Below, one piece after another: positions 4,574 to 35,448 of a stretch of 43,519 nucleotides of DNA. A program made the position numbers and the translations under genes. The notes under the pieces are model-generated. The model did not search any database, had not been told where the DNA came from, and saw only the letters and a list, made by a program, of their open reading frames with translations. How positions within the stretch are numbered: position 1 is the first letter of the stretch; the number at the start of each line of letters is the position of its first letter. This DNA is from a virus. The stretch lies in the UHGV virus genome UHGV-0308184; one strand, 5' to 3'.

Positions 4574-7500
4574 TTGGCCGTTGAAAATATCTCCATTCGT
4601 ATTAAGGACAATATTAAAGATATAGAAAAAGAACTAGATAGTTTAGATCGACGAATAGCTAAACTAAAAGGTCAACGCCCTGCTATCGAGTGGAATACTA
4701 CGAAACTAAAAAAAGCAAAAGAAGAAATAAAAAATATTAATGTTGATATAAAAAAATTGCAAGCACAGAAAGCAACCATTAAGGCAGATGTAAATACTAA
4801 AGATGCAAAAGAAAAAATATCAACCTTAAATCAACAAATTAAACAACTACAATCTAGGAAAGCAAATTTACAAATAGTAACAACTCAGTTGCAAGGTTCA
4901 GAAGCACAACTTCGTAAACTAGACAATGAGATTAGTCGATTGAATAATCGCAAGGCTATGTTACAAATTGATAGTCGTGGTCTAGGAGAAACTGGAGAAG
5001 AGAGTCGAAAATTACAAAATAGTCTTCGAAGTATGAGTGAACGGACCTACAAGATAAATGTTTCATCAAATCTAGATAAGTTGAGCGGGCTAGCTAACAA
5101 TGCAAGCAATAAAATATTAGGAGCATTCAATCCTTTAACATCCAAACTAAATCAAATGCTTGGTGTAGGACTAGCTGTAAAGGCTGTTGATAAGGCAACT
5201 AGTATGATTACAAATTCTATCGATGGTTCTATTTCAAGATTAGATACTTTAAATAACTTTGAAAAAGTAATGTCAAATATGAATATTTCAGCCGACCAAG
5301 CCGATATCGCCAAAAGCAAACTTGTAAAAGGGCTAAATGGCTTGCCTACAACTTTAGATGATGCTGTTGCTTCAGTACAAAGGTTTACAGCAAATAATAA
5401 AGATGTACAGAAATCTGCGGATATATTCTTGGCATTAAATAATGCAATTTTAGCGGGTGGCATGTCACGAGAAATACAATCAAGCGCACTTGAGCAAATA
5501 TCTCAATCTTATTCTAAAGGTAAACCAGACATGATAGAATGGCGCTCGCTACTAACAGCAATGCCTGCCCAAGTGGATCAAATCGGGAAGAGTTTTGGTT
5601 TAACATCTGATCAATTGGGAGAAGCTTTAAGAAATGGAAATATCTCTATGGATCAATTTATGGATAGAATTGTGGAGATGAATAAAAACGGGGCAGAAGG
5701 ATTCAAATCATTTGAAGAACAAGCTAGAAATTCTGTTGGTGGCGTTCGAACTGGTATGTCTATTATGAATTCAGCTATAACACGTGGAGTGACCTCGATT
5801 ATCGATACATTTGATAAGATGGCGAAGGATAAAGGCCTGGGAGGAATTGCAGGTGTATTTGGAAAAATTGGTGCTGCTTTCGAAGATAATTTAAAAAAAA
5901 TAGGAGCTTTTGCAGAAGAACATTCAGATGATATATTTCGTTTTTTTGACAAAGTAGTGAAATTTTTAAGCACTATTGATTATGCTTCATTTTTTGAGGG
6001 ACTAGGTAAAGGAATAAAGGGTGTAAAAGATGATGCTGTTGGATTATTCAATCTATTGAAACCTATATTTGAATTTTTAGGTAAGGGAGATACTTTGAAA
6101 GGCCTAGGTGCATTTATTCCACGATTATTTGAATTTGGGGTAGCTTTAAAGTTTATAGCTATTAGTGCCAAAGGGCTTTCTATATTATCCAAAGTTTTTG
6201 GAGTATTCGGTAAAATAAAATTGCCTAAATTCGGTAAAGGTGGAGGAGCATCAGAAATCGTAAAACCATTAGAGAGTTTAAAATCTATTGGGACTGGTTT
6301 TTTAAAAAATGCTGGTAACCTTGCGTTATTATTCGGAGCAATAAAAGTGCTTGAAGAAGGCGCAGAAGCAATGAAACAACTAGATGAAAAAATACCAAAT
6401 GATTTTACAGGGCTAGCTAAAAAAACAGCGAGCATGAGTCTGGCTATCAGTGCAATTGGGGGTCTGGCTTTTATAGCTAGTAAATTAAATTTTACTGATA
6501 ATTTAAAAGGGATTGCAAGTATTGCATTAATCTCAGTAGATTTAATGATTGCAAGTGAAGCGATGAACCAACTCAATGAGAAAGTACCAAACAATATTGG
6601 AATTGTCGCTAAGAAACTAGGGAGTTTATCAATTGCAATCGGGGCTATGGCAGGATTAGTTGTTATTGCAGGCGCTTTTTCATCTGCTAATCCAATGATG
6701 GCTATATCAGGATTAGCTAGTGTAGCACTCCTATCACTAGAATTAATGATTGCAAGCGAAGCACTATCACAATTAAATGAAAAAGTACCTTCAGATATTG
6801 CAACAATAGCTAAAAAGGTTGCTAATATCGGTATAGCAATTGGTGCAATGGGTCTTTTAGTTGGAGTAATAGGTGGTTTAAGTATTGCTACATTCCCTGC
6901 AGCAATCGCTGGTTTGGCAGCTGTAGCACTACTAGCAGGAGAATTAATGCTAGTTTCTGAATCAATTAACCAATTGAATAAAAAGGTTCCTGAAGATATT
7001 ACAAGTGTTAAAAATAAGCTTGAGAGTTTAGAAGAAGTTTTAAGCTATATGGCGAAATCCAGTATTGGAAAAATTTCATCTTTATTCAAAGGAATAATAG
7101 GTACTTTTACTGCATCGACATATGTACAAGTTATCGATGGTTTGATAGAAGTGTCAAATGGATTGAAACGTCTAGCTAGTGCTTCAGAAGATATAAATAG
7201 TGCAAAACTTGTAAATAATATATATGACATCAATAAAGCAGTTGAAGTTATTGGTGGAAAAGATAATATTTTTGAGAAATTAGGAAGCTTAATGAAAGGT
7301 AAAGTTGACACTGCTATTTTTGATGAGATGGAAAATATATTAAATAAAATGATTTCTCTATCTAATAAAATGAAAACTTTACAAGAAAATAAATTTTCAA
7401 TATCTGATATTACAAGTAAAGTTACAGTTATAAAAGATATATTAGAAAAGTTAGATCCTGCTGATTGGGATATTGCGAAATCTGGAGTCGTTTCATCTAA

Positions 7501-9736
7501 AATTATTGATCAAGCAGATACTACTATATTCTGGTTAAATAAATTAAGCAAAAAGTTAGCAGCATTATCAGAAAGTAAGTTAGAAACGGGTTCAGTGCAA
7601 AATGTACTACAAAATATTAAAGGTGCATTACGTATGCTAACTAATGAAAGTTGGAGTGATTTCATTGGTGGAGTTGTGCCAAAAGATTTTATAGATATGA
7701 CGGGCCAAAGTGTGGATGGTTTGAATAGCATTAACAAAAAGCTGTCTAAACTATCAGAAACTTCTTTTGACTTAGGAAAAACTCAAACCATGATAGCAAA
7801 TCTAAAATCCTCATTACGTATGTTGCAAATTAAATCTTGGGGCGACTTCGATGGGGGAATAGTTGAACGTGGAACATTAGATAAACTAGACACTGCAGTT
7901 TATTGGTTAAGTAGTATAGCTAAAAAATTTGGAACACTTTCTAATTTTGAATTTGATGGTGGCAAGTTACAAGGAATAATAGCAAATATCAAAGGTGCTT
8001 TAAGATTATTGCAAGCAGATAGTTGGACCGATTTTAATGAAGGAATTGTTGGTAAAAGATTATTGGACCAGTTAGACACATCAATTTACTGGTTGAATAA
8101 AGTGGGCAGTAAATTAAATGAACTTTCGAATTTACCATTAGAAACAGGTAAGGCACAATCTGTTATTCAAAATATCAAAGGATCTATTCGAATGTTAAGA
8201 ATCGATTCATGGAGTGATTTTAATGATGGATTTGTTGATAGGGAAATGCTTAGCGGATTAGATGTAGCTGTATTATGGGTCACTAAAGTAGCAAATCGTT
8301 TAACAGGTCTTTCGGGAATAAATATCGAAACTGACAAAATAAATTCCACTATTGCAAGTACCAAAGGGGCATTAAGAATGTTTCAGGCTAGCTCTTGGCG
8401 AGATTACAATGAAGGAATAGTCAAAGCTGACTTTATAAAAGCTTTGGATTTAGTTTTGATAAACTTTATACAATTAGCAAATAGAGTTAATGGATTAGCT
8501 AGTATCACACTAGAAAATGATAAAGTCCATTCAACAATTACCGCTGTTAAAGGTGTTATTAATAGGTTAACGATAGATACTTTTCCTGATTCAAACACGA
8601 TGATTGGTGAAGATGTCATTGATAAAATCGACACTACAGTTTATAGACTGATAACATTAGCAAATAGAATTAATCAGATTCCTCAATTAACATTGGGTGT
8701 TGATGAATTGAGTAATAATATAAAAAGTATTAAATATGTCGCAACAGAGATGGCCATTAGTAAGTGGCAAGGGATATCTGAAGGCGTTATAAGCAGCGAA
8801 ACGTTAGGTATGATTGTTTCATCTGTTAGTAAGTTAGGAACGATATCAAATAAATTAAGTGTATTAAACGCATTACCATTTGATTGGACGAGTGTATTAA
8901 ACAACGTTAACCGAATGAAATCAATCATTGAACTAATGAACACATTTCCAAGTGCAAAAGGACTGGATAGTATACCCGAGCTAGTCGAATCTTTTAAAAA
9001 CTTACTTATTACGTTACAAGGTCTAGAATCTAAATTTGAACCAATTGGGAAATCATATGGACAGCAAGTTATTAATGGATTCAAAAATGCTGATGTTCCT
9101 TCTAAAATCAAAAAAGTTATTGATGATTTAATAACTAATTTAAGAAATAAAGATACCGAGTTTAATAATGTTGGTAAAGGATTTGGGGATAGTCTGAAAT
9201 CAGGATTTACAAATGCACTACAAGGTTTAGATAGTAATATTGATAGTTATGTTACATCTATTAATAACAAAATTTCTTCTATTCAAACCAATCTAAATTC
9301 ATTAACAGCGCCTAGTCTTACTGTTGATGTAACAGAAAATGTGAAGACTCGAAGAGTTACACGTGCAAATGGAGGCATTATACCTCAGTATCGAGCAAAC
9401 GGTGGAAGCATTATGAAACATATTTTTAAATCCAAAGGTACAGATCGTGTTCCAGCAATGTTAACTGCTGGAGAATATGTTCAACGTAAAAAAGCAGTAG
9501 ATCATTTCGGAATTGACTTTATGGAACGGATCAATAACTTAGATCTAAGTGGAGCACTAGCTAGTATCACTAATCGATTTGGAAATAGTCAACCTGTCTC
9601 AAATGTAATGAATAGATATTATAATACGACAAAAAATACAAGAAATAACAATAATACAATTAACCAAAATATTAGTATGACTGGAAATCCTAATTTTGCC
9701 AATTTGCGTGCAAATAGATTTTTGAGAGGAGTGTAA
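4574..9736 (+). CDS. Tail tape measure protein, 1720 aa.
   Basis: Size, N-terminal coiled coil, internal hydrophobic segments, and two tandem repeat arrays. It starts at TTG with RBS GGAGGAGGTG. Confidence 0.9.
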   Translation: MAVENISIRIKDNIKDIEKELDSLDRRIAKLKGQRPAIEWNTTKLKKAKEEIKNINVDIKKLQAQKATIKADVNTKDAKEKISTLNQQIKQLQSRKANLQIVTTQLQGSEAQLRKLDNEISRLNNRKAMLQIDSRGLGETGEESRKLQNSLRSMSERTYKINVSSNLDKLSGLANNASNKILGAFNPLTSKLNQMLGVGLAVKAVDKATSMITNSIDGSISRLDTLNNFEKVMSNMNISADQADIAKSKLVKGLNGLPTTLDDAVASVQRFTANNKDVQKSADIFLALNNAILAGGMSREIQSSALEQISQSYSKGKPDMIEWRSLLTAMPAQVDQIGKSFGLTSDQLGEALRNGNISMDQFMDRIVEMNKNGAEGFKSFEEQARNSVGGVRTGMSIMNSAITRGVTSIIDTFDKMAKDKGLGGIAGVFGKIGAAFEDNLKKIGAFAEEHSDDIFRFFDKVVKFLSTIDYASFFEGLGKGIKGVKDDAVGLFNLLKPIFEFLGKGDTLKGLGAFIPRLFEFGVALKFIAISAKGLSILSKVFGVFGKIKLPKFGKGGGASEIVKPLESLKSIGTGFLKNAGNLALLFGAIKVLEEGAEAMKQLDEKIPNDFTGLAKKTASMSLAISAIGGLAFIASKLNFTDNLKGIASIALISVDLMIASEAMNQLNEKVPNNIGIVAKKLGSLSIAIGAMAGLVVIAGAFSSANPMMAISGLASVALLSLELMIASEALSQLNEKVPSDIATIAKKVANIGIAIGAMGLLVGVIGGLSIATFPAAIAGLAAVALLAGELMLVSESINQLNKKVPEDITSVKNKLESLEEVLSYMAKSSIGKISSLFKGIIGTFTASTYVQVIDGLIEVSNGLKRLASASEDINSAKLVNNIYDINKAVEVIGGKDNIFEKLGSLMKGKVDTAIFDEMENILNKMISLSNKMKTLQENKFSISDITSKVTVIKDILEKLDPADWDIAKSGVVSSKIIDQADTTIFWLNKLSKKLAALSESKLETGSVQNVLQNIKGALRMLTNESWSDFIGGVVPKDFIDMTGQSVDGLNSINKKLSKLSETSFDLGKTQTMIANLKSSLRMLQIKSWGDFDGGIVERGTLDKLDTAVYWLSSIAKKFGTLSNFEFDGGKLQGIIANIKGALRLLQADSWTDFNEGIVGKRLLDQLDTSIYWLNKVGSKLNELSNLPLETGKAQSVIQNIKGSIRMLRIDSWSDFNDGFVDREMLSGLDVAVLWVTKVANRLTGLSGINIETDKINSTIASTKGALRMFQASSWRDYNEGIVKADFIKALDLVLINFIQLANRVNGLASITLENDKVHSTITAVKGVINRLTIDTFPDSNTMIGEDVIDKIDTTVYRLITLANRINQIPQLTLGVDELSNNIKSIKYVATEMAISKWQGISEGVISSETLGMIVSSVSKLGTISNKLSVLNALPFDWTSVLNNVNRMKSIIELMNTFPSAKGLDSIPELVESFKNLLITLQGLESKFEPIGKSYGQQVINGFKNADVPSKIKKVIDDLITNLRNKDTEFNNVGKGFGDSLKSGFTNALQGLDSNIDSYVTSINNKISSIQTNLNSLTAPSLTVDVTENVKTRRVTRANGGIIPQYRANGGSIMKHIFKSKGTDRVPAMLTAGEYVQRKKAVDHFGIDFMERINNLDLSGALASITNRFGNSQPVSNVMNRYYNTTKNTRNNNNTINQNISMTGNPNFANLRANRFLRGV
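6367..7030 (+). repeat. Four tandem coding repeats of about 195 bp inside the tape measure (L-N-E-K-V-P motif).
   Basis: AMKQLDEKIP, AMNQLNEKVP, ALSQLNEKVP, and SINQLNKKVP recur at about 65-aa spacing. Confidence 0.7.
7480..8900 (+). repeat. About eight tandem coding repeats of about 185 bp inside the tape measure (DT..YWL...KL...IKGALRML..SW.DF motif).
   Basis: The motif recurs near 7521, 7711, 7892, 8075, 8263, 8450, 8632, and 8800. Coordinates are approximate. Confidence 0.7.
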
Positions 9737-17375: not shown

Positions 17376-18348
17376 TATTTCTAGTTGGCAATCAAATATT
17401 AACGTAGGTAAAGAAGGTGTCCCTGCAGATTTTGTTATAGTTAAAGCTACAGGAGGAACAGGATATATAAATCCTGACTGTGATAGAGCATTCCAACAAG
17501 CCATTAGCAGTGGGAAAAAAGTAGCTGTATATCATTTTGCGAATGAGGTAGGACTTGAAGGGACAGCGGAACAAGAAGCTGAGTTCTTTTTAAAAAATAT
17601 TAAAGGTTATATCGGTAAGGCCGTCTTGGTTTTAGACTGGGAAAGTACTAATAAAGGAGACGTTGCTTGGGCTAAACGTTGGTTAGATTATGTTCAAGGT
17701 AAAACAGGGGTAAAACCTATGTTTTATACTTATACCAATGTTTTACAATCATATAATTTTAGCTCTATTGCAAAAGCTGATTATGGTTTGTGGTTAGCTG
17801 ATTACGGAGCAAATAATCCACAAGGATATTCCCAACCTACTCCGCCACCAGTCCCTTATTGGAATTTTATTTCAATGTATCAATATACGTCAAATGGTCA
17901 ATTGCCTGGCTGGAATGGTCGATTAGATTTAAACGTATTCTTTGGTGATAGAAGCATGTGGGACAAATACGCTAATCCCAAAAGTAATCCAACACCCGCT
18001 CCTCCAGTTCCTCCTAAACCTAAGCGCCGTTACGGATATAGAGTAGACGATTTACAATTTGTAAACGGTATTTGGCAAGTAAGAAATGATGTATTGGGGC
18101 AGCCGGACTTTGATTGGACAGAAAACGGAATTAATGTTGCTTATATTGATAAGATCGATCCGGCAACAGGAGAGAATATGCCAGATCAAGAATTAAAAGT
18201 CGGAGACTATTTTGCTTTTCAACCATCTTCTGTAGGGATCATTACCGAACAATACTCTTTAAATGGGAAAACAATCTCGCATGTTCAATTCCCAGATGAA
18301 TTTATTTGGTTGTACACAGAAAGTGTTGGGAAATTAATCTATGGGTAA
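17356..18348 (+). CDS. Endolysin with a GH25 N-acetylmuramidase domain and a C-terminal SH3b-type cell-wall-binding domain.
   Basis: GIDISSWQ and VIVKATGGTGY motifs of GH25, a Pro-rich linker, and a C-terminal SH3_5-like segment. RBS GGAGATGA precedes ATG 17356 (the track start is 17347). Confidence 0.8.
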   Translation: MTLNGIDISSWQSNINVGKEGVPADFVIVKATGGTGYINPDCDRAFQQAISSGKKVAVYHFANEVGLEGTAEQEAEFFLKNIKGYIGKAVLVLDWESTNKGDVAWAKRWLDYVQGKTGVKPMFYTYTNVLQSYNFSSIAKADYGLWLADYGANNPQGYSQPTPPPVPYWNFISMYQYTSNGQLPGWNGRLDLNVFFGDRSMWDKYANPKSNPTPAPPVPPKPKRRYGYRVDDLQFVNGIWQVRNDVLGQPDFDWTENGINVAYIDKIDPATGENMPDQELKVGDYFAFQPSSVGIITEQYSLNGKTISHVQFPDEFIWLYTESVGKLIYG

Positions 18349-18430
18349 ATGTTTCATCTGGTTACCCTAGAACTATCTGTTTAAATTAGTATGACTTATC
18401 AAACTTTAGCTACATTATGTACTAGTAAAT

Positions 18431-18469
18431 CCCTACCTCTCGCAATGAAATGAGAAGTAGGGATTTTTT
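18431..18469 (+). terminator. Rho-independent terminator of the late/lysis operon.
   Basis: 10-bp stem CCCTACCTCT/AGAAGTAGGG with one mismatch, a 12-nt loop, and a T tract. Confidence 0.65.
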
Positions 18470-18558
18470 ATAAAAATAGTTGAAATATAAAAAAAGATGA
18501 TTTAAAATATAGTTACCTTTTTAATACACTCATATATGATCTTCTTTCGAGAAGAGTG

Positions 18559-18589
18559 CTCCTATCTTATCCCAAGTCCAAGATAGGAG
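18559..18589 (+). terminator. Stable hairpin with a perfect 10-bp stem (CTCCTATCTT/AAGATAGGAG) and a weak U tract.
   Basis: Read directly. A CTTCT-TTCG-AGAAG tetraloop hairpin precedes it at 18541..18554. Confidence 0.45.
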
Positions 18590-18697
18590 TATTTTAATAT
18601 AATTGTATATTTGAATTTAAATAAAATACAATTATTTTGTAAAATGAAAACTTGTATTTTAATAAAGAAGGCGGTAAATGTCTTTACCAATTAATTT

Positions 18698-18950
18698 TTA
18701 TTTTTCATTTTTAGTACATCTTGCCGCCTTTCCCCAATGAGGCGGCATCTTTTTACATAAAAATTAATGAACTCAAAAAACAGATATTGTAATATTGATA
18801 CATATTAAAATTCTTATTTTTCATGCAGACTACCTTTTCCCGATAAGGTGGTCGTTTTTTTTGTTGAAATTTGAAAATTAGTAAAGTAAAATTATTATAT
18901 ATTAAGCTATAACCAGTAAGAACTATTTTATCCTCAATAAGGTGGTTCTT
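18698..18950 (+). repeat. Three spaced copies (about 100 bp apart) of a hairpin module with a conserved loop (CC(T)TTTCCCNNATNAGGYGG). Two copies are preceded by an identical TTATTTTTCAT box.
   Basis: Copy 1 stem GCCGCC/GGCGGC at 18723..18746 plus T tract. Copy 2 stem GACTACC/GGTGGTC at 18828..18853 plus T8. Copy 3 stem AAGAACTA/TGGTTCTT at 18918..18950. Boxes at 18698..18708 and 18814..18824. Confidence 0.55.
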
Positions 18951-18954
18951 ACTT

Positions 18955-19028
18955 GTACCATTAGCTCAGCTGGTTAGAGCAAACGGCTCATAACCGTTCG
19001 GTCACAGGTTCGAGTCCTGTATGGTCCA
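18955..19028 (+). tRNA. tRNA with anticodon CAT (Met or lysidine-Ile) and a U2-C71 acceptor-stem mismatch; no encoded CCA.
   Basis: Manual cloverleaf: acceptor GTACCAT/ATGGTCC, D stem GCTC/GAGC, anticodon stem AACGG/CCGTT with loop CTCATAA, T arm ACAGG-TTCGAGT-CCTGT. Confidence 0.6.
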
Positions 19029-19047
19029 TTCAAATAAGTAAAAGCTA

Positions 19048-19076
19048 TTGACAATATTTTAAAAGTATATTATTCT
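19048..19076 (+). promoter_or_regulatory. Putative sigma-A-like promoter (TTGACA, 17-nt spacer, TATTCT) downstream of the tRNA.
   Basis: Hexamers read by eye. The -10 element is weak. Confidence 0.25.
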
Positions 19077-19093
19077 TTAAAAAAGAAGACAAT

Positions 19094-19147
19094 CCCCCCA
19101 TCCCTTTTTAGGACAGTCACGTACTGACATGGGGGTTTTTTTATTTT
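19094..19147 (+). terminator. Terminator or attenuator hairpin immediately upstream of the Abi gene RBS.
   Basis: Stem CCCCCAT/ATGGGGG around a structured 27-nt loop, then TTTTTTTATTTT. The RBS GGAGG begins 2 nt after the T tract. Confidence 0.55.
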
Positions 19148-19158
19148 GGAGGAAAAAT

Positions 19159-20127
19159 ATGAAGGAACCACTATCATTATCGTTTGATGAACAAATGGCA
19201 CTTTTTGAAGAAAGAGGTATGCAGATGACCTCAAAAGATGTAGAAAAATTAAAAGTTATAGGATATTATCGAATTAAGCAGTTTGCTGCGCCTTTAGCTA
19301 ATAAGAAAATTGTTAATGAAAATACTGTATATGATTACAAAGGAATATATTTTTCCGATGTTTTGAAAAGATACTATCAAGATAAAAATTTAAGAATTCA
19401 TTTGTTACATGCAATAGAGAAAATTGAGGTTGCGTTGAAAACATGGGTTGCTTTTATTTTAGGAGAACAATACGGCGCTTTTGGATATCTTAATTTTTCA
19501 GAATGGTGTGATAAAAATAGATACTCAAAATTTGAAATAGAAAAGCGACAATTTTTCTTTAAAAAAGATTTACTAAGAGCTACATCTAGATCGTGCACTG
19601 AGGATATAAAATTAAAAAAGAATAAAGAAAAAGATAATTTTCCAAGTATTTGGTTAGCTGTGGAAGTTCTTACTTTTGGTGAACTTGTTAGATTAGTAGA
19701 AATTATGTCTACTAGAAATAAACGAAAACTTTCAAAAATGTTTAGATGTACGGATATTGAATTATTATCATGGCTAAAATGTATAAATTTTGTTAGGAAT
19801 GCATGTGCGCACAATGCTAATGTAATAGACCTTCAGTTAGAGACGAAGCCCGTTTGCAGGAGTGATTGGAAAGATTATTTGTATAATGTTAATAAGAGTA
19901 ATAATGGGACCCCTTCTAATAAGTTAGCAATAGTAATTTTTATCATCAAAACTTTAGTTACACCAATAAATGAAAGATATGGATGGAAAAATATCCGAAG
20001 GAACATTGCTAGATTAGTAGATAGTAGTGATAAAAATGCACATCTACTAGGTTTTTCAGACTGCGCATCTGCATATAAAGTTTTAGAAAAATCAAATGGA
20101 ACCACAACGAAAGCCTCGCTCCCTTGA
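19159..20127 (+). CDS. Abi_2-family (AbiD/AbiF-like) abortive-infection protein; a moron gene.
   Basis: The N-terminal signature L-S-F-D-E-Q-x-x-L-F-E-E-R-G-M-x-M...IGYYRIKQF is typical of Abi_2. RBS GGAGGA lies upstream. The track start at 19129 falls inside the terminator. The gene is visibly more AT-rich than its surroundings. Confidence 0.6.
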   Translation: MKEPLSLSFDEQMALFEERGMQMTSKDVEKLKVIGYYRIKQFAAPLANKKIVNENTVYDYKGIYFSDVLKRYYQDKNLRIHLLHAIEKIEVALKTWVAFILGEQYGAFGYLNFSEWCDKNRYSKFEIEKRQFFFKKDLLRATSRSCTEDIKLKKNKEKDNFPSIWLAVEVLTFGELVRLVEIMSTRNKRKLSKMFRCTDIELLSWLKCINFVRNACAHNANVIDLQLETKPVCRSDWKDYLYNVNKSNNGTPSNKLAIVIFIIKTLVTPINERYGWKNIRRNIARLVDSSDKNAHLLGFSDCASAYKVLEKSNGTTTKASLP

Positions 20128-20394: not shown

Positions 20395-20473
20395 GATATC
20401 GTCCTCCCTAATACAATTATATCGAACTTTCGTTCGTGTTGTCTATCAAGAAATATAAAATAATACAAAAAAA

Positions 20474-20676
20474 TTGGGTACTTTTTGGGTATGTCGGTAA
20501 TGAAAAAAGCTAAAACCTTTAATAAATAAAGGTTTTAGCTTTTTAATAAAGAGCCACCTGCCAGCTTCATAGATAATTATTCAAGAATATTGCTGTTTAA
20601 TTAAAAACAATTCTATATGTTTTAATATATACATCAAGATAACAATTTAGATATACTTTGGGTAATTTTTGGGTAT
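20474..20676. promoter_or_regulatory. Candidate attP region with two 19-bp direct repeats (TTGGGTAcTTTTTGGGTAT at 20474..20492 and TTGGGTAaTTTTTGGGTAT at 20658..20676) flanking a terminator. It abuts the integrase stop codon.
   Basis: 18 of 19 positions are identical between the direct repeats. This matches arm-type integrase-binding site architecture next to int. Confidence 0.4.
20503..20544. terminator. Bidirectional terminator: 14-bp stem AGCTAAAACCTTTA/TAAAGGTTTTAGCT flanked by A6 and T4.
   Basis: Perfect inverted repeat with a 6-nt loop. Confidence 0.6.
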
Positions 20677-21819
20677 TTACAAAATATCTTTGTATTTGTT
20701 TTCATATTTTTCTTTGTTCTTTTTTCTATTTGCTTCAGTAGCTGATGCGTATTCATATGACTGTATTATCTCTTTATGTCCTAGCTGTGTTTTGATATAT
20801 ATTGGATCAGCTTCAGCTAGGATTAATAAGTCAGAACGGGCATGTCTAAAACTATGAGATGAAATTCTTTCAATATTTGCTAGTTCACATGTTTCTTTTA
20901 TATATTTATTCACAGATGAATTTGAGATGGGCCATGAATTTTTTTTACTAACAAAAGCAAAATTTTGGGGATTACGTAAATCTCCTCTCAATATTTTTTT
21001 CTTTTGTTCCATTTCATATTTTTTTAAATAATAGAAAAGAGAAGAAGGGACATCAATATTTCGAACACCTGCTTCTGATTTTGTAGGGCCAATTCTATAC
21101 TGGCCAGCATCATACTTATAGGCATTTTTTATCTTAATAACTTCGTTACTTTCATCAATGCTATCCCAAGTCAACGCAGCAACCTCTTGATAACGAGCTC
21201 CAGTATATAGTTGTACTAAAATGAAGTATTTACTTGTGGTGTTTTCACGAGATAATAAAGCTTCTTTAAATTTAGTTAAATCATCAATAGATATGGTTTT
21301 ATTTGATTTCTTTTCTGGTACTTGGCCAGTTAACTTTATATTTCTTGTTGGATTTGAATGAATATATTGCATGTCCAACGCTTCTAAAAACATAGATTTT
21401 ACAATGTTATGTCTGTTGCTCACCGTCTCAACTGCTAGTCCTTTTTCATTGATATTGCCAGGTTTTGCAAGCCAGTTAATCCATTGCTGATATTTGACTT
21501 TGGTGACGCCTTTTAGCAATTGTTTGTCCCCAAAGAAATCATGTAAATTCTTTCTTGTTAAAGCTATTTTTTGCATACGGCCAGCAGACACTTTATTCTT
21601 TTTAAATGTATCAACCCAAATATCATAAAAATCTAAAAGTTTAATTGCTTCAGTGTTTTCACCACGCATAATTTTTGATTTAAACTCTGTTTCAGCATCT
21701 CTACAAGCCTTCTTAGTAGATCTAGTAATCATTTTATTTTTCCATTCATTTGTAATAGGGTCTTTATATTTAAATCTTAACTGCCATTTTCCATTAGCTA
21801 ATTTCTTTGGTTCTGCCAT
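20677..21819 (-). CDS. int: Tyrosine integrase (site-specific recombinase, phage integrase family).
   Basis: The C-terminal catalytic region holds ...SHSFRHA..., ...LGH..., and ...YEYA... (R-H-R-Y pattern). The start is probably ATG 21817..21819 (MAEPKK) with RBS GAGAGG. The track ORF extends upstream to 21915. Confidence 0.85.
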   Translation of the reverse strand: MAEPKKLANGKWQLRFKYKDPITNEWKNKMITRSTKKACRDAETEFKSKIMRGENTEAIKLLDFYDIWVDTFKKNKVSAGRMQKIALTRKNLHDFFGDKQLLKGVTKVKYQQWINWLAKPGNINEKGLAVETVSNRHNIVKSMFLEALDMQYIHSNPTRNIKLTGQVPEKKSNKTISIDDLTKFKEALLSRENTTSKYFILVQLYTGARYQEVAALTWDSIDESNEVIKIKNAYKYDAGQYRIGPTKSEAGVRNIDVPSSLFYYLKKYEMEQKKKILRGDLRNPQNFAFVSKKNSWPISNSSVNKYIKETCELANIERISSHSFRHARSDLLILAEADPIYIKTQLGHKEIIQSYEYASATEANRKKNKEKYENKYKDIL

Positions 21820-22004
21820 AAATACCAACCTCTCGGATTTTTTTAATTTAAATACATTTAAGAACGATTTTTTATTGAATATGTTATAAGTAAGTATCAA
21901 GTTATCGTATATCATAAATACGAATACGAATATATGTTCGTTTTTTGTGATAAAAAGAAAAACCCGAAGGTTTCTCTCTTTGTTAATAAAATAATAAGAA
22001 GATA

Positions 22005-30413: not shown

Positions 30414-30742
30414 AAGCGCAAATGGAATCTTGGCAAGATATACAAGAGTATGTAAAGAACAACAAGAAAAAACATAAACGTAGAATGGCTAACGATGCAA
30501 TGAAAAACGTCAACGAGTTAGGATTTCCTTTCACCTATTTCGAAGATACTTACCAATTTGCAATTAAAACATCTATCGGGATGGTCGACTATTTTGGAAC
30601 AACTGGCACATGGGTTGTGCGTAAGAATCAAGATCGTGGTAGAGGGCTAAAAAAATTAAAGAAGTATTTGGAACATCCAGTTCCAACAAAAGAAATAAAA
30701 AAAACAAAGGGTAATCAGTCATGGATGAAAAATAATAGATAG
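30410..30742 (+). CDS. Hypothetical protein, 110 aa.
   Basis: ATGA overlap with the RusA stop. Confidence 0.45.
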   Translation: MKAQMESWQDIQEYVKNNKKKHKRRMANDAMKNVNELGFPFTYFEDTYQFAIKTSIGMVDYFGTTGTWVVRKNQDRGRGLKKLKKYLEHPVPTKEIKKTKGNQSWMKNNR

Positions 30743-35352: not shown

Positions 35353-35423
35353 GTATCTATGGCGAAGTGGCAACGCTCTAGTTTGCAAAACTAGCATTCG
35401 TGGGTTCGAATCCCACTAGATAC
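35353..35423 (+). tRNA. tRNA-Cys (anticodon GCA), phage-encoded.
   Basis: Manual cloverleaf: acceptor GTATCTA/TAGATAC (7 bp), short D stem GCG/CGC, anticodon stem CTAGT/ACTAG with loop TTGCAAA, T arm GTGGG-TTCGAAT-CCCAC. Confidence 0.6.
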
Positions 35424-35448
35424 TTAAATACAAGGAGGTTCTACATAT

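Follow-up and report, generated by a model that had tools for sequence, protein, structure and literature searches.

The 43,519-nt virus genome UHGV-0308184 (the window, our term for the whole stretch of DNA analyzed) carries a hairpin-rich island between its endolysin gene and its Abi_2 gene, and we asked what this island might encode. The original prediction, made from the sequence alone, had described it as a stretch without a convincing gene but with a thrice-repeated stem-loop module, and had offered a small-RNA or type-I-toxin-like repeat family, a protein-binding RNA motif or a tandemly decayed attachment-site scar as explanations. The small-RNA repeat family is the option that we favor: a promoter-like site precedes each module, all but the third of the original modules carry a terminator, the units are conserved in phages and plasmids, and one of them, M1, resembles an Enterococcus small RNA (sRNA), sRNA 84. 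The island is a real RNA feature that recurs in modular form in Enterococcus phages; its most likely identity is a row of sibling sRNA genes that ends in a transfer RNA (tRNA). As to its exact makeup, we lean, if only slightly, toward four short, separately promoted noncoding RNA genes in a row, the last of which is fused to the tRNA gene.

Four tandem units share one design

The four tandem units, M0 to M3, all lie on the plus strand (Table 1) and follow the same plan: a predicted, near-consensus sigma-A promoter, which is TTGAA(A/C)-17-TAAAAT in the consensus of the family, a U-rich 5′ stretch, and a hairpin with the C-rich loop UYCCCAAK. The 5′ stretch, which is predicted to be unpaired, begins with ACC/AUAC about 6 to 7 nt past the −10 box. 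M0, M1, and M2 end in T-runs, whereas M3 has none and leads into the tRNA gene. A scan for intrinsic terminators, defined as a G+C-rich stem with a T-run directly behind it, recovered the hairpins of M1 (H1, followed by TCTTTTT) and M2 (H2, followed by T8) but not that of M3 (H3). Lacking a T-run, H3 cannot act as a terminator, and transcription should run on into the tRNA. The hairpin of M0 (H0) has the tail UAUUUU in the window as compared to T7 in related sequences.

As for promoters, the scan of the window returned sites for M0 and M3, the latter with an alternative, overlapping site (TTGAAA-16-TATTAT), while its terminators were those of M1 and M2. The promoter boxes of M1 are weaker in the window than the TTGAAA-17-TAAAAT of its relatives, and the −35 box of M2 reads ATGAAC instead of their TTGAAC. 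With these weaker boxes and their altered 5′ stretches, the window copies of M1 and M2 may be decaying.

Direct inspection of the sequence located all the hairpins, the loop motif, the 11-mer, and the mini-open reading frame (mini-ORF) of the original prediction where it had placed them. Its three shared-loop hairpins are real (loop strings CCTTTCCCCAATGAGGCGG at 18727-18745, CCTTTTCCCGATAAGGTGG at 18833-18851, and ATCCTCAATAAGGTGG at 18930-18945), but the count was one short, since M0 contains a fourth hairpin of the same loop type. Across both strands of the window, the loop core occurs 54 times and falls within a hairpin loop in only four cases; these are consecutive and all on the plus strand (18570, 18732, 18838, and 18932), such that the repeat exceeds chance. 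Most of the hairpins thought to be stable also held up when single-strand folding was compared with 200 shuffles per region, namely, those at 18423-18470 and 18540-18592 as well as H1, H2, and H3; the exception was 19095-19135 (energies in Table 1). The 11-mer TTATTTTTCAT, described as preceding two of the hairpins, is indeed exact at 18698 and 18814 on the plus strand, the sole other exact copy in the window being at 30725 on the minus strand. Its register differs, however, with 13 nt separating it from the stem in the first copy and 3 nt in the second. Local alignment of M1 with M2 gave a score of 39, which none of 500 shuffles reached (23.3 ± 3.6); for M2 and M3, 4 of 500 shuffles reached the observed score. 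A shared origin of the units is possible and would fit these alignments.

The units recur as modules in phages and plasmids

To describe the family, we collected at least 36 IMG/VR contigs with module 1 by two pattern scans, which reduced to 18 distinct variants of M1. A first seed pattern run on viral contigs had been too unspecific, with about 14 real cases among at least 120 loci; these loci were later reused as decoys. The units recur in varied combinations and contexts in the at least 36 viral contigs, in GenBank Enterococcus phages, and in conjugative plasmids of Enterococcus faecalis. Phage SEsuP-1 matches positions 18598-19029 of the window at ∼87%, while IME197 and Efs 1-1-1 match the left part alone. 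In the Enterococcus phage records examined, the units behind the lysin gene were left unannotated.

Within this collection, the M1 promoter (−35 and −10 boxes) and 5′ stretch are nearly invariant across some 17 to 18 distinct variants, and M1 is seen alone, with the second hairpin only, with M2, or with M2, M3, and the tRNA. In four unrelated upstream contexts, its left boundary is exactly the −35 box. The units are inherited as independent promoter-to-terminator blocks. Consider the consensus-type relative L093, which has four plus-strand TTGAA(A/C)-17-TAAAAT sites (at 9101, 9231, 9346, and 9445) and in which the promoter scan found 7 promoter-like sites as opposed to 2.1 ± 1.8 in shuffles. 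M0 is represented by 11 distinct variants, all reading TTGAA(A/T)-17-(A/T)AAAAT. All 11 keep both hairpins, with compensatory changes in 5 pairs. Their loops read UUYCCAAGU(C/A)CU, of which the core, CCAAGU, never varies. H1 and H2 are 97.8% paired in 13 variants, the changes being mostly C-to-U opposite G; many of the pairs are G·U, so that pairing works only if the plus-strand RNA folds.

The loop motif likewise proved to be conserved in related elements, being kept across relatives while the stems change yet stay paired. In 351 kb of relatives, 110 loop-motif hairpins lie on the strand of the array and 27 weak ones on the opposite strand, and wholly different stems carry the same loop.

Conservation extends to large conjugative E. 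faecalis plasmids (∼240 kb), which contain a 78%-identical M0-Hx-M1-M2 array (LR962543.1 at 198.4-199.1 kb, here L253; also LR962552, LR962562, and LR962860). Behind the plasmid array lies a truncated gene for a lipoprotein-like product (MKKVLLVIGL...), a cargo that viral contig L241 carries as well. Separately, the whole array is matched at 89.6% in CP110026.1 (H46), a 43,501-bp non-mobilizable E. faecalis "plasmid"; since it is nearly as large as the window, the record probably represents a circular phage genome that was entered under the wrong label. An AT-rich insert between M0 and M1, located just 5′ of the M1 −35 box (18596-18651), is found in SEsuP-1-type relatives and is missing from those in which M0 and M1 adjoin. 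Its role may be that of an operator or of a second promoter.

The last unit leads into a tRNA gene

The stretch had been regarded as lacking a convincing gene, but a tRNA gene with anticodon CAU (CAT in the DNA) adjoins H3. This gene also explains the third hairpin, which can be read as the 5′ leader of the tRNA. Only tRNAs reach the Rfam gathering threshold in the window. The window tRNA has a U2:C71 mismatch in the acceptor stem in place of the G2-C71 pair of its relatives, and it scores 63 bits compared to 71.4 bits for the GGACC...GGUCC version in L093. From its sequence, the tRNA would be specific for Met or, if lysidine-modified, for Ile2. Given its pairs C4-G69 and C5-G68 and the annotation of a similar phage tRNA (H39) as tRNA-Ile, it may be a lysidine-type tRNA-Ile2 that reads AUA. 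Across 20 large ORFs of this phage (33.3% G+C), AUA accounts for 22.2 per 1,000 codons and for 29% of those that specify Ile. A second phage tRNA gene, tRNA-Cys (GCA), lies at 35353-35424 and has no C-rich-loop hairpin ahead of it.

The same tRNA follows the lysin gene in many Enterococcus phages, including phiFL1-4, EFC-1, EFP1, and AE4_2, with 87 to 94% identity to the window tRNA. In EFC-1 and phiFL4A, the two that we examined, a single hairpin with the loop type of the island (CGCC-GUCCCCAA-GGCG in phiFL4A) and a T-run stands before the tRNA and serves as the lysin terminator, with no extra units. The hairpin of M3 shows homology to this terminator hairpin in its 3′ arm. In the window, in contrast, the old EFC-1-type T-run has been drawn into the longer stem of M3, and a promoter-like site stands ahead of the hairpin.

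Alternatively, the C-rich-loop hairpins could be cis-acting RNA elements. As binding or processing sites for a phage or host RNA-binding protein, a nuclease barrier, or an antitermination factor, they would regulate how far late-operon transcription reads through to the tRNA and the cargo genes, or they would protect 3′ ends after RNase P cleavage. In favor of this idea, a hairpin immediately precedes the tRNA both here and in EFC-1 and phiFL4A. The conservation of the loop while stems differ fully between hairpin classes, together with the location of all hairpins on the strand of late transcription, fits this idea too. Yet read-through control has no need of a promoter-like site per unit, loops vary in hairpin-only relatives (TTCATGATA, TTCCTGATT), and no candidate binding protein was identified. 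We regard a cis-acting role of this kind as improbable, though protein binding by the conserved loop is conceivable.

In the SEsuP-1-type relatives L001, L204, L237, and L246, the M3 hairpin has two mismatches, and the main tRNA is degraded in its anticodon stem and at its acceptor end. These phages also contain an extra decayed tRNA-like copy ∼150 to 250 nt upstream of M1, followed by another same-loop hairpin, GCACAA-UACUUCCCCAAG-UUGUGU, within a longer stem. The outer stem of this extra hairpin covaries in plasmid L253 (ACU/AGU to ACC/GGU).

Together with the tRNA gene itself, this second, decayed copy is what speaks for the proposal that the modules are scars of repeated integration into a tRNA gene. 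In the window, however, the 3′ 23-mer of the tRNA has a single match even when up to three mismatches are allowed, the modules share no sequence with the tRNA, and the integrase lies at a distance of 1.6 kb, with the Abi gene and another ORF in between. We consider decayed attachment sites a very improbable origin of the island.

The mini-ORF is not conserved

Both small ORFs of the original prediction exist, the 20-codon frame at 18678-18740 on the plus strand and a 7-codon frame, ATG CAG ... TAA, at 18822-18845. As a gene, the 20-codon mini-ORF was rejected: its ATG is ATA in 9 of 18 distinct variants, indels break the frame, and the ATG at 18678 sits inside the predicted −10 box of M1. Module 2 reads CAC, not CAT/ATG, in most relatives. 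On the opposite strand, small ORFs starting ATGAAAAATAA have 7, 5, 3, and 23 codons and are not conserved.

These results bear on a toxin-antitoxin system, whether a type-I-like repeat with the hydrophobic mini-ORF as toxin or a type III (ToxIN-like) antitoxin to the Abi gene. The window does provide a mini-ORF with an AAGAAGG box, and repeated RNA modules with a terminator lie upstream of the Abi gene. For type I, in addition to the missing conservation of start codon and frame, twenty residues are short for a membrane toxin and the opposite strand has no conserved ORF. For type III, the units are about 100 nt long, about 60% alike, and each has its own promoter, as opposed to ToxI-type repeats, which are about 36 nt long and identical. 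Moreover, the downstream gene varies or is absent (an annotated ferrochelatase in SEsuP-1, the lipoprotein-like gene in L241 and L253, others elsewhere), so the modules are not tied to Abi and are not its antitoxin. A toxin-antitoxin system of either type is thus highly improbable.

M1 resembles Enterococcus sRNA 84

sRNA 84 (Rfam RF02846, Ref84; sRNA_101 in E. faecium) is expressed and has been validated as an sRNA that acts in trans, presumably by pairing through its 5′ region, which is conserved and single-stranded (PMC12642391). It raises the expression of WxL/LPXTG surface proteins, aids gut colonization, and has a role in mucin binding; its locus is a conserved chromosomal intergenic site between two hypothetical genes, and phages go unmentioned in that work (PMC12642391). 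At a permissive threshold, Ref84 was the top non-tRNA Rfam match in the window, covering M1 (18685-18754) with 24.9 bits, and it led the non-tRNA matches in L093 as well (31.2 bits). With a model of our own (R1), built from 23 usable host sRNA 84 genes fetched from Enterococcus genomes and run over the whole window with filters off, M1 ranked first (23.6 bits, E value 0.024) and M2 fourth (17.8 bits). Consensus-type M1 reached 31.3 bits with R1.

What M1 shares with sRNA 84 is UACCAA, UUUUUAUUUUUCAUUUU, and a CU-rich element beside the terminator, including a 17-nt run, UUUUAUUUUUCAUUUUA, of the unpaired 5′ region. Compared to the full host 5′ region, AUACCAACAACAACCUUUUUAUUUUUCAUUUU, M1 has UUAA/ACAA in place of CAACAACC, and seed-containing decoys equal the window copy here. 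Both RNAs are Enterococcus-specific, and both have their own sigma-A promoter a few nucleotides before a 5′ end starting (A)UACCAA as well as an intrinsic terminator with a U-tail, the phage elements being predicted. Judged by consensus match, the promoter lies ∼7 nt before the 5′ end, reading TAGACA/TTGACA-17-TATTAT in the host and TTGAAA-17-TAAAAT in the phage. When E. faecalis sRNA 84 with its promoter was aligned to consensus M1, the local score of 57 exceeded those of all 108 seed-containing decoys; the extra matches of consensus M1 fall in the spacer of the E. faecalis promoter.

The differences are equally clear. Stem-loop 1 of sRNA 84 (UUACUC UUAUU GAGUAA) is missing from M1 and M2, in the window as in every relative. 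M1 also lacks the CAACAACAACC repeat, and its terminator stem is unrelated. A stem-loop of M0 holds the position of stem-loop 1 with unrelated sequence. Rather than at a conserved chromosomal site, M1 is found on phages and plasmids, behind the lysin and in tandem with related units and a tRNA. By blastn, no host-type sRNA 84 copy was found among the viral contigs fetched, nor did any of the fetched host loci have proteins of the window phage nearby.

Overall, M1 has the look of a shortened relative of this core sRNA of the Enterococcaceae, and so, to a lesser degree, do M2 and M3. We consider it probable that a real relationship between M1 and sRNA 84 exists, by descent or by mimicry, although the link is best described as suggestive and unproven. 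Other weak Rfam matches were far below threshold and were dismissed as chance (RefA9, 22.3 bits, in the M3 leader of L093; GcvB, 26.1; csRNA, 20.5; SscA on the minus strand; rliE).

On the host side, some Enterococcus species have three chromosomal copies of sRNA 84 (L130, L133, L134, L140, L146, and L149, from E. larvae and Enterococcus spp. BWR-S5 and LJL51), so that sibling families of this sRNA exist in hosts, too. The additional copies differ in their terminator stem (CUAUCUCU...AGAGAUAG) and are preceded by a TTGACA promoter, again with no window phage proteins near. The reverse complement of E. faecalis sRNA 84 (L139:4348-4435) reads AAAAGGAG, a looped-out stem, and AUG AAA AAU AAA AAG GUU GUU GUU GGU. 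Since this is like a translation start, sRNA 84 looks antisense to the 5′ end of a secreted-protein gene, a resemblance that may hint at its origin and targets.

A proposed mode of action

In the mechanism that we propose, the predicted RNAs would be made from their own promoters in lysogens, with M0, M1, and M2 ending at intrinsic terminators to give RNAs of ∼60 to 85 nt, while the M3 hairpin would form the 5′ leader of the tRNA(CAU) precursor and be released by RNase P. The RNAs would act in trans by base pairing with translation-initiation regions: the U-rich ...CAU stretch could pair with AUG-AAA-AAU-AAA starts, and the C-rich loop or the CCUC element with Shine-Dalgarno sequences. In this manner, the units could mimic or compete with sRNA 84 on host mRNAs for surface proteins. 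Consensus M1, read as its reverse complement, is AAGAGG-N10-AUG AAA AAU AAA, which is how genes for secreted proteins generically start. Such a sequence agrees with the model yet leaves target prediction unspecific.

Precedents exist for the parts of this scheme. Listeria LhrC1-5 and RsaE/RoxS of Staphylococcus and Bacillus are sibling sRNAs whose UCCC loops pair with Shine-Dalgarno regions, the targets including surface-protein mRNAs. The likeness concerns only how these systems work: several short, tandem, related units, each with promoter and terminator, and here a UYCCCAAK motif exposed in all four hairpin loops of the window, terminator loops included, for which Shine-Dalgarno pairing is putative. 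In contrast, the window array is phage-borne and has no sequence or Rfam match to those families. Prophages are also known to encode regulatory sRNAs as morons, for example, DicF of Escherichia coli and AgvB/AsxR of enterohemorrhagic E. coli (EHEC), the latter two being anti-sRNAs or target mimics that interfere with core sRNAs. The island would resemble them in that a temperate phage carries small promoter-to-terminator RNA genes among its accessory genes and that these are proposed to act on core regulatory networks of the host; the bacteria are different and the sequences unrelated. Having the same sense as sRNA 84, M1 would be a seed mimic and not a sponge, unlike AgvB/AsxR.

Prophage-borne sRNAs, sibling sRNA arrays, and the sRNA 84 family are each of a known kind. 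As a more far-reaching proposal, and one that we put forward tentatively and judge rather doubtful as a whole, temperate Enterococcus phages and some conjugative plasmids would carry a portable sibling-sRNA array with at least one member derived from or mimicking the seed of sRNA 84; lysogeny would rewire the WxL/LPXTG adhesin regulon, affecting mucin binding and gut colonization, and one unit would use a tRNA as a 3′ processing signal replacing a terminator. Few enterococcal sRNAs have a role as well demonstrated as that of sRNA 84 in surface adhesins, mucin binding, and gut colonization (PMC12642391). If phages and plasmids do spread shortened, seed-sharing copies of it, lysogeny could alter adhesion and colonization of E. 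faecalis via RNA alone, a lysogenic conversion invisible to protein-based annotation. A covariance model of the units would improve the annotation of these recurring modular RNA genes and of the tRNA behind the lysin. Even if the RNAs are unexpressed, the island would still illustrate the duplication of a single terminator cassette, one copy of which became the leader of a tRNA.

Weighing the array against passive terminators

Several observations weigh against the array of sRNA genes and its link to sRNA 84. The promoters and terminators proposed here are consensus matches alone, and promoter-like sites in the window region number 21 compared to 19.2 in shuffles, which is no excess. The window copy of M1 has the −10 box TAAATG and has lost the CCUC element. 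The relatives were partly gathered by a pattern taken from the seed. Covariation across homologues, suggested as a check by the original prediction, spoke for the M0 hairpins with their five compensatory pairs but not for H1 and H2, where it was not above shuffle controls in 13 variants, a result that we ascribe to low family diversity. The likeness of the loops could reflect shared ancestry and not selection. Finally, RNAduplex predicted no specific target within the phage (whole window plus 70 translation-start regions), its top matches falling on the antisense strand of the RNAs or in A-rich coding sequence, for example, where the tape-measure gene starts (4574). That search is uninformative because the U-rich seed pairs with any lysine-rich (A-rich) coding region.

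As for sRNA 84, neither the 24.9 bits of the window copy nor the 31.2 bits of the consensus-type copy in L093 reach the Ref84 gathering score of 52 bits. Decoys, that is, unrelated viral contigs with the seed pattern, attained up to 28.9 bits and local alignment scores of 34 ± 7 with a maximum of 53; window M1 (23.6 bits, local score 43) is therefore indistinguishable from chance once the seed is given. Even an unrelated A-rich coding region at 4640-4790 on the minus strand scored 45 locally. The sole unbiased figure for the link is the window-level E value of ∼0.01 to 0.02.

In a rival reading, the island is passive punctuation, with redundant terminators or insulators at the junctions of successively acquired cargo, promoter boxes that are AT-rich noise or relics, a loop that marks a duplicated terminator cassette, and a chance likeness to sRNA 84. 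In its favor, H1 and H2 are textbook terminators, the single hairpin of this type in EFC-1 and phiFL4A is the lysin terminator directly before the tRNA, contigs L013, L242, and L245 keep the second hairpin alone without its 5′ stretch, seed-containing decoys reach the score of the window, and the promoter count of the window region is no higher than in shuffles. However, passive punctuation accounts poorly for the four evenly spaced promoter sites of the same format in L093 (7 sites found, 2.1 expected), for the near-invariance of the −35 box, −10 box, and 5′ stretch of M1 in four unrelated upstream contexts, for the inability of H3 to terminate without a T-run, for the same loop on unrelated stems, and for consensus M1 scoring above all 108 decoys. 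We judge it unlikely, though deserving of serious consideration, and keep to the row of separately promoted RNA genes as our preferred reading.

Genomic setting and neighboring features

The nearest GenBank relatives of the window are Enterococcus phages, and its gene order is GH25 lysin, island, Abi_2 gene, integrase. The endolysin, which has a ZoocinA target-recognition domain, ends with its stop codon at 18348; the Abi_2 gene (E value 4e-43) starts with the ATG at 19159; and the minus strand encodes a tyrosine integrase (20677-21915). We identify the window as a temperate phage of Enterococcus and the island as its accessory ("moron") region between the lysis genes and the attachment site.

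Table 1. Predicted RNA units and flanking elements of the island, with folding energies relative to shuffled sequence
Feature	Position	Strand	Promoter-like site	Predicted RNA and elements	Basis	Folding (kcal/mol; z)
Intrinsic terminator of lysin/late operon	18423..18470	+		20-bp interrupted stem, then TTTTTT		18423-18470: −19.8; −6.2
M0	18480..18596	+	TTGAAA (18480-85), 17-nt spacer, TAAAAT (18503-08)	predicted RNA ∼18515-18596; 5′ stretch ACCUUUUUAAUACACUCAU; small stem-loop 18540-18555; terminator-type hairpin 18556-18592, loop AUCCCAAGUCC, weak U-tail	promoter scan and fold	18540-18592, two hairpins: −21.3; −5.5
Optional AT-rich insert	18596..18651		TTTAAA-18-TAAAAT (second promoter-like site)	inverted repeat AATTGTATATTT / AAAATACAATT		
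M1	18652..18754	+	TTGTAT (18652-57), 17-nt spacer, TAAATG (18675-80)	predicted RNA ∼18686-18754; 5′ stretch ACCAAUUAAUUUUUAUUUUUCAUUUUUAGUACAUCUUG; terminator hairpin (H1) 18722-18747, loop UCCCCAAU; T-run 18750-54	terminator scan	18670-18760, 6-bp hairpin 18673-18688 plus H1: −22.5; −4.3
M2	18767..18862	+	ATGAAC (18767-72), 17-nt spacer, TAATAT (18790-95)	predicted RNA ∼18800-18862; 5′ stretch ACAUAUUAAAAUUCUUAUUUUUCAUG; terminator hairpin (H2) 18828-18853, loop UUCCCGAU; T8 18855-62	terminator scan	H2: −13; −2.9
M3	18864..18954	+	TTGAAA (18864-69), 17-nt spacer, TAAAAT (18887-92)	predicted leader ∼18899-18954; 17-bp hairpin (H3) 18915-18953, loop CCUCA; no T-run	promoter scan and fold	H3: −19; −5.0
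tRNA gene, anticodon CAU	18955..19028	+		no CCA encoded	ARAGORN; Rfam tRNA 63 bits	
Promoter-like and terminator-like element	19048..19142	+	TTGACA-17-TATTCT	C-rich terminator-like hairpin (19095-19135); T7 run	promoter scan	19095-19135: −16.4; −0.6 (no better than shuffles)

The terminator that closes the lysin gene or late operon lies 75 nt past the lysin stop codon. At the other end of the island, the ribosome-binding site and ATG of Abi_2 are directly 3′ of the T7 run of the 19048-19142 element, which probably ends the M3-tRNA transcript and/or serves as a leader of Abi. Other possible roles of the region from 19048 to 19158 are those of a fifth small unit or of an attenuator of the defense gene, and contig L200 has a like layout of promoter, hairpin, and ribosome-binding site ahead of a different cargo gene. 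The intergenic region beside the integrase (20395-20676), far from the tRNA, contains a perfect hairpin, AAAACCTTTAATAAATAAAGGTTTT, at ∼20514-20538 and is likely the attP region.

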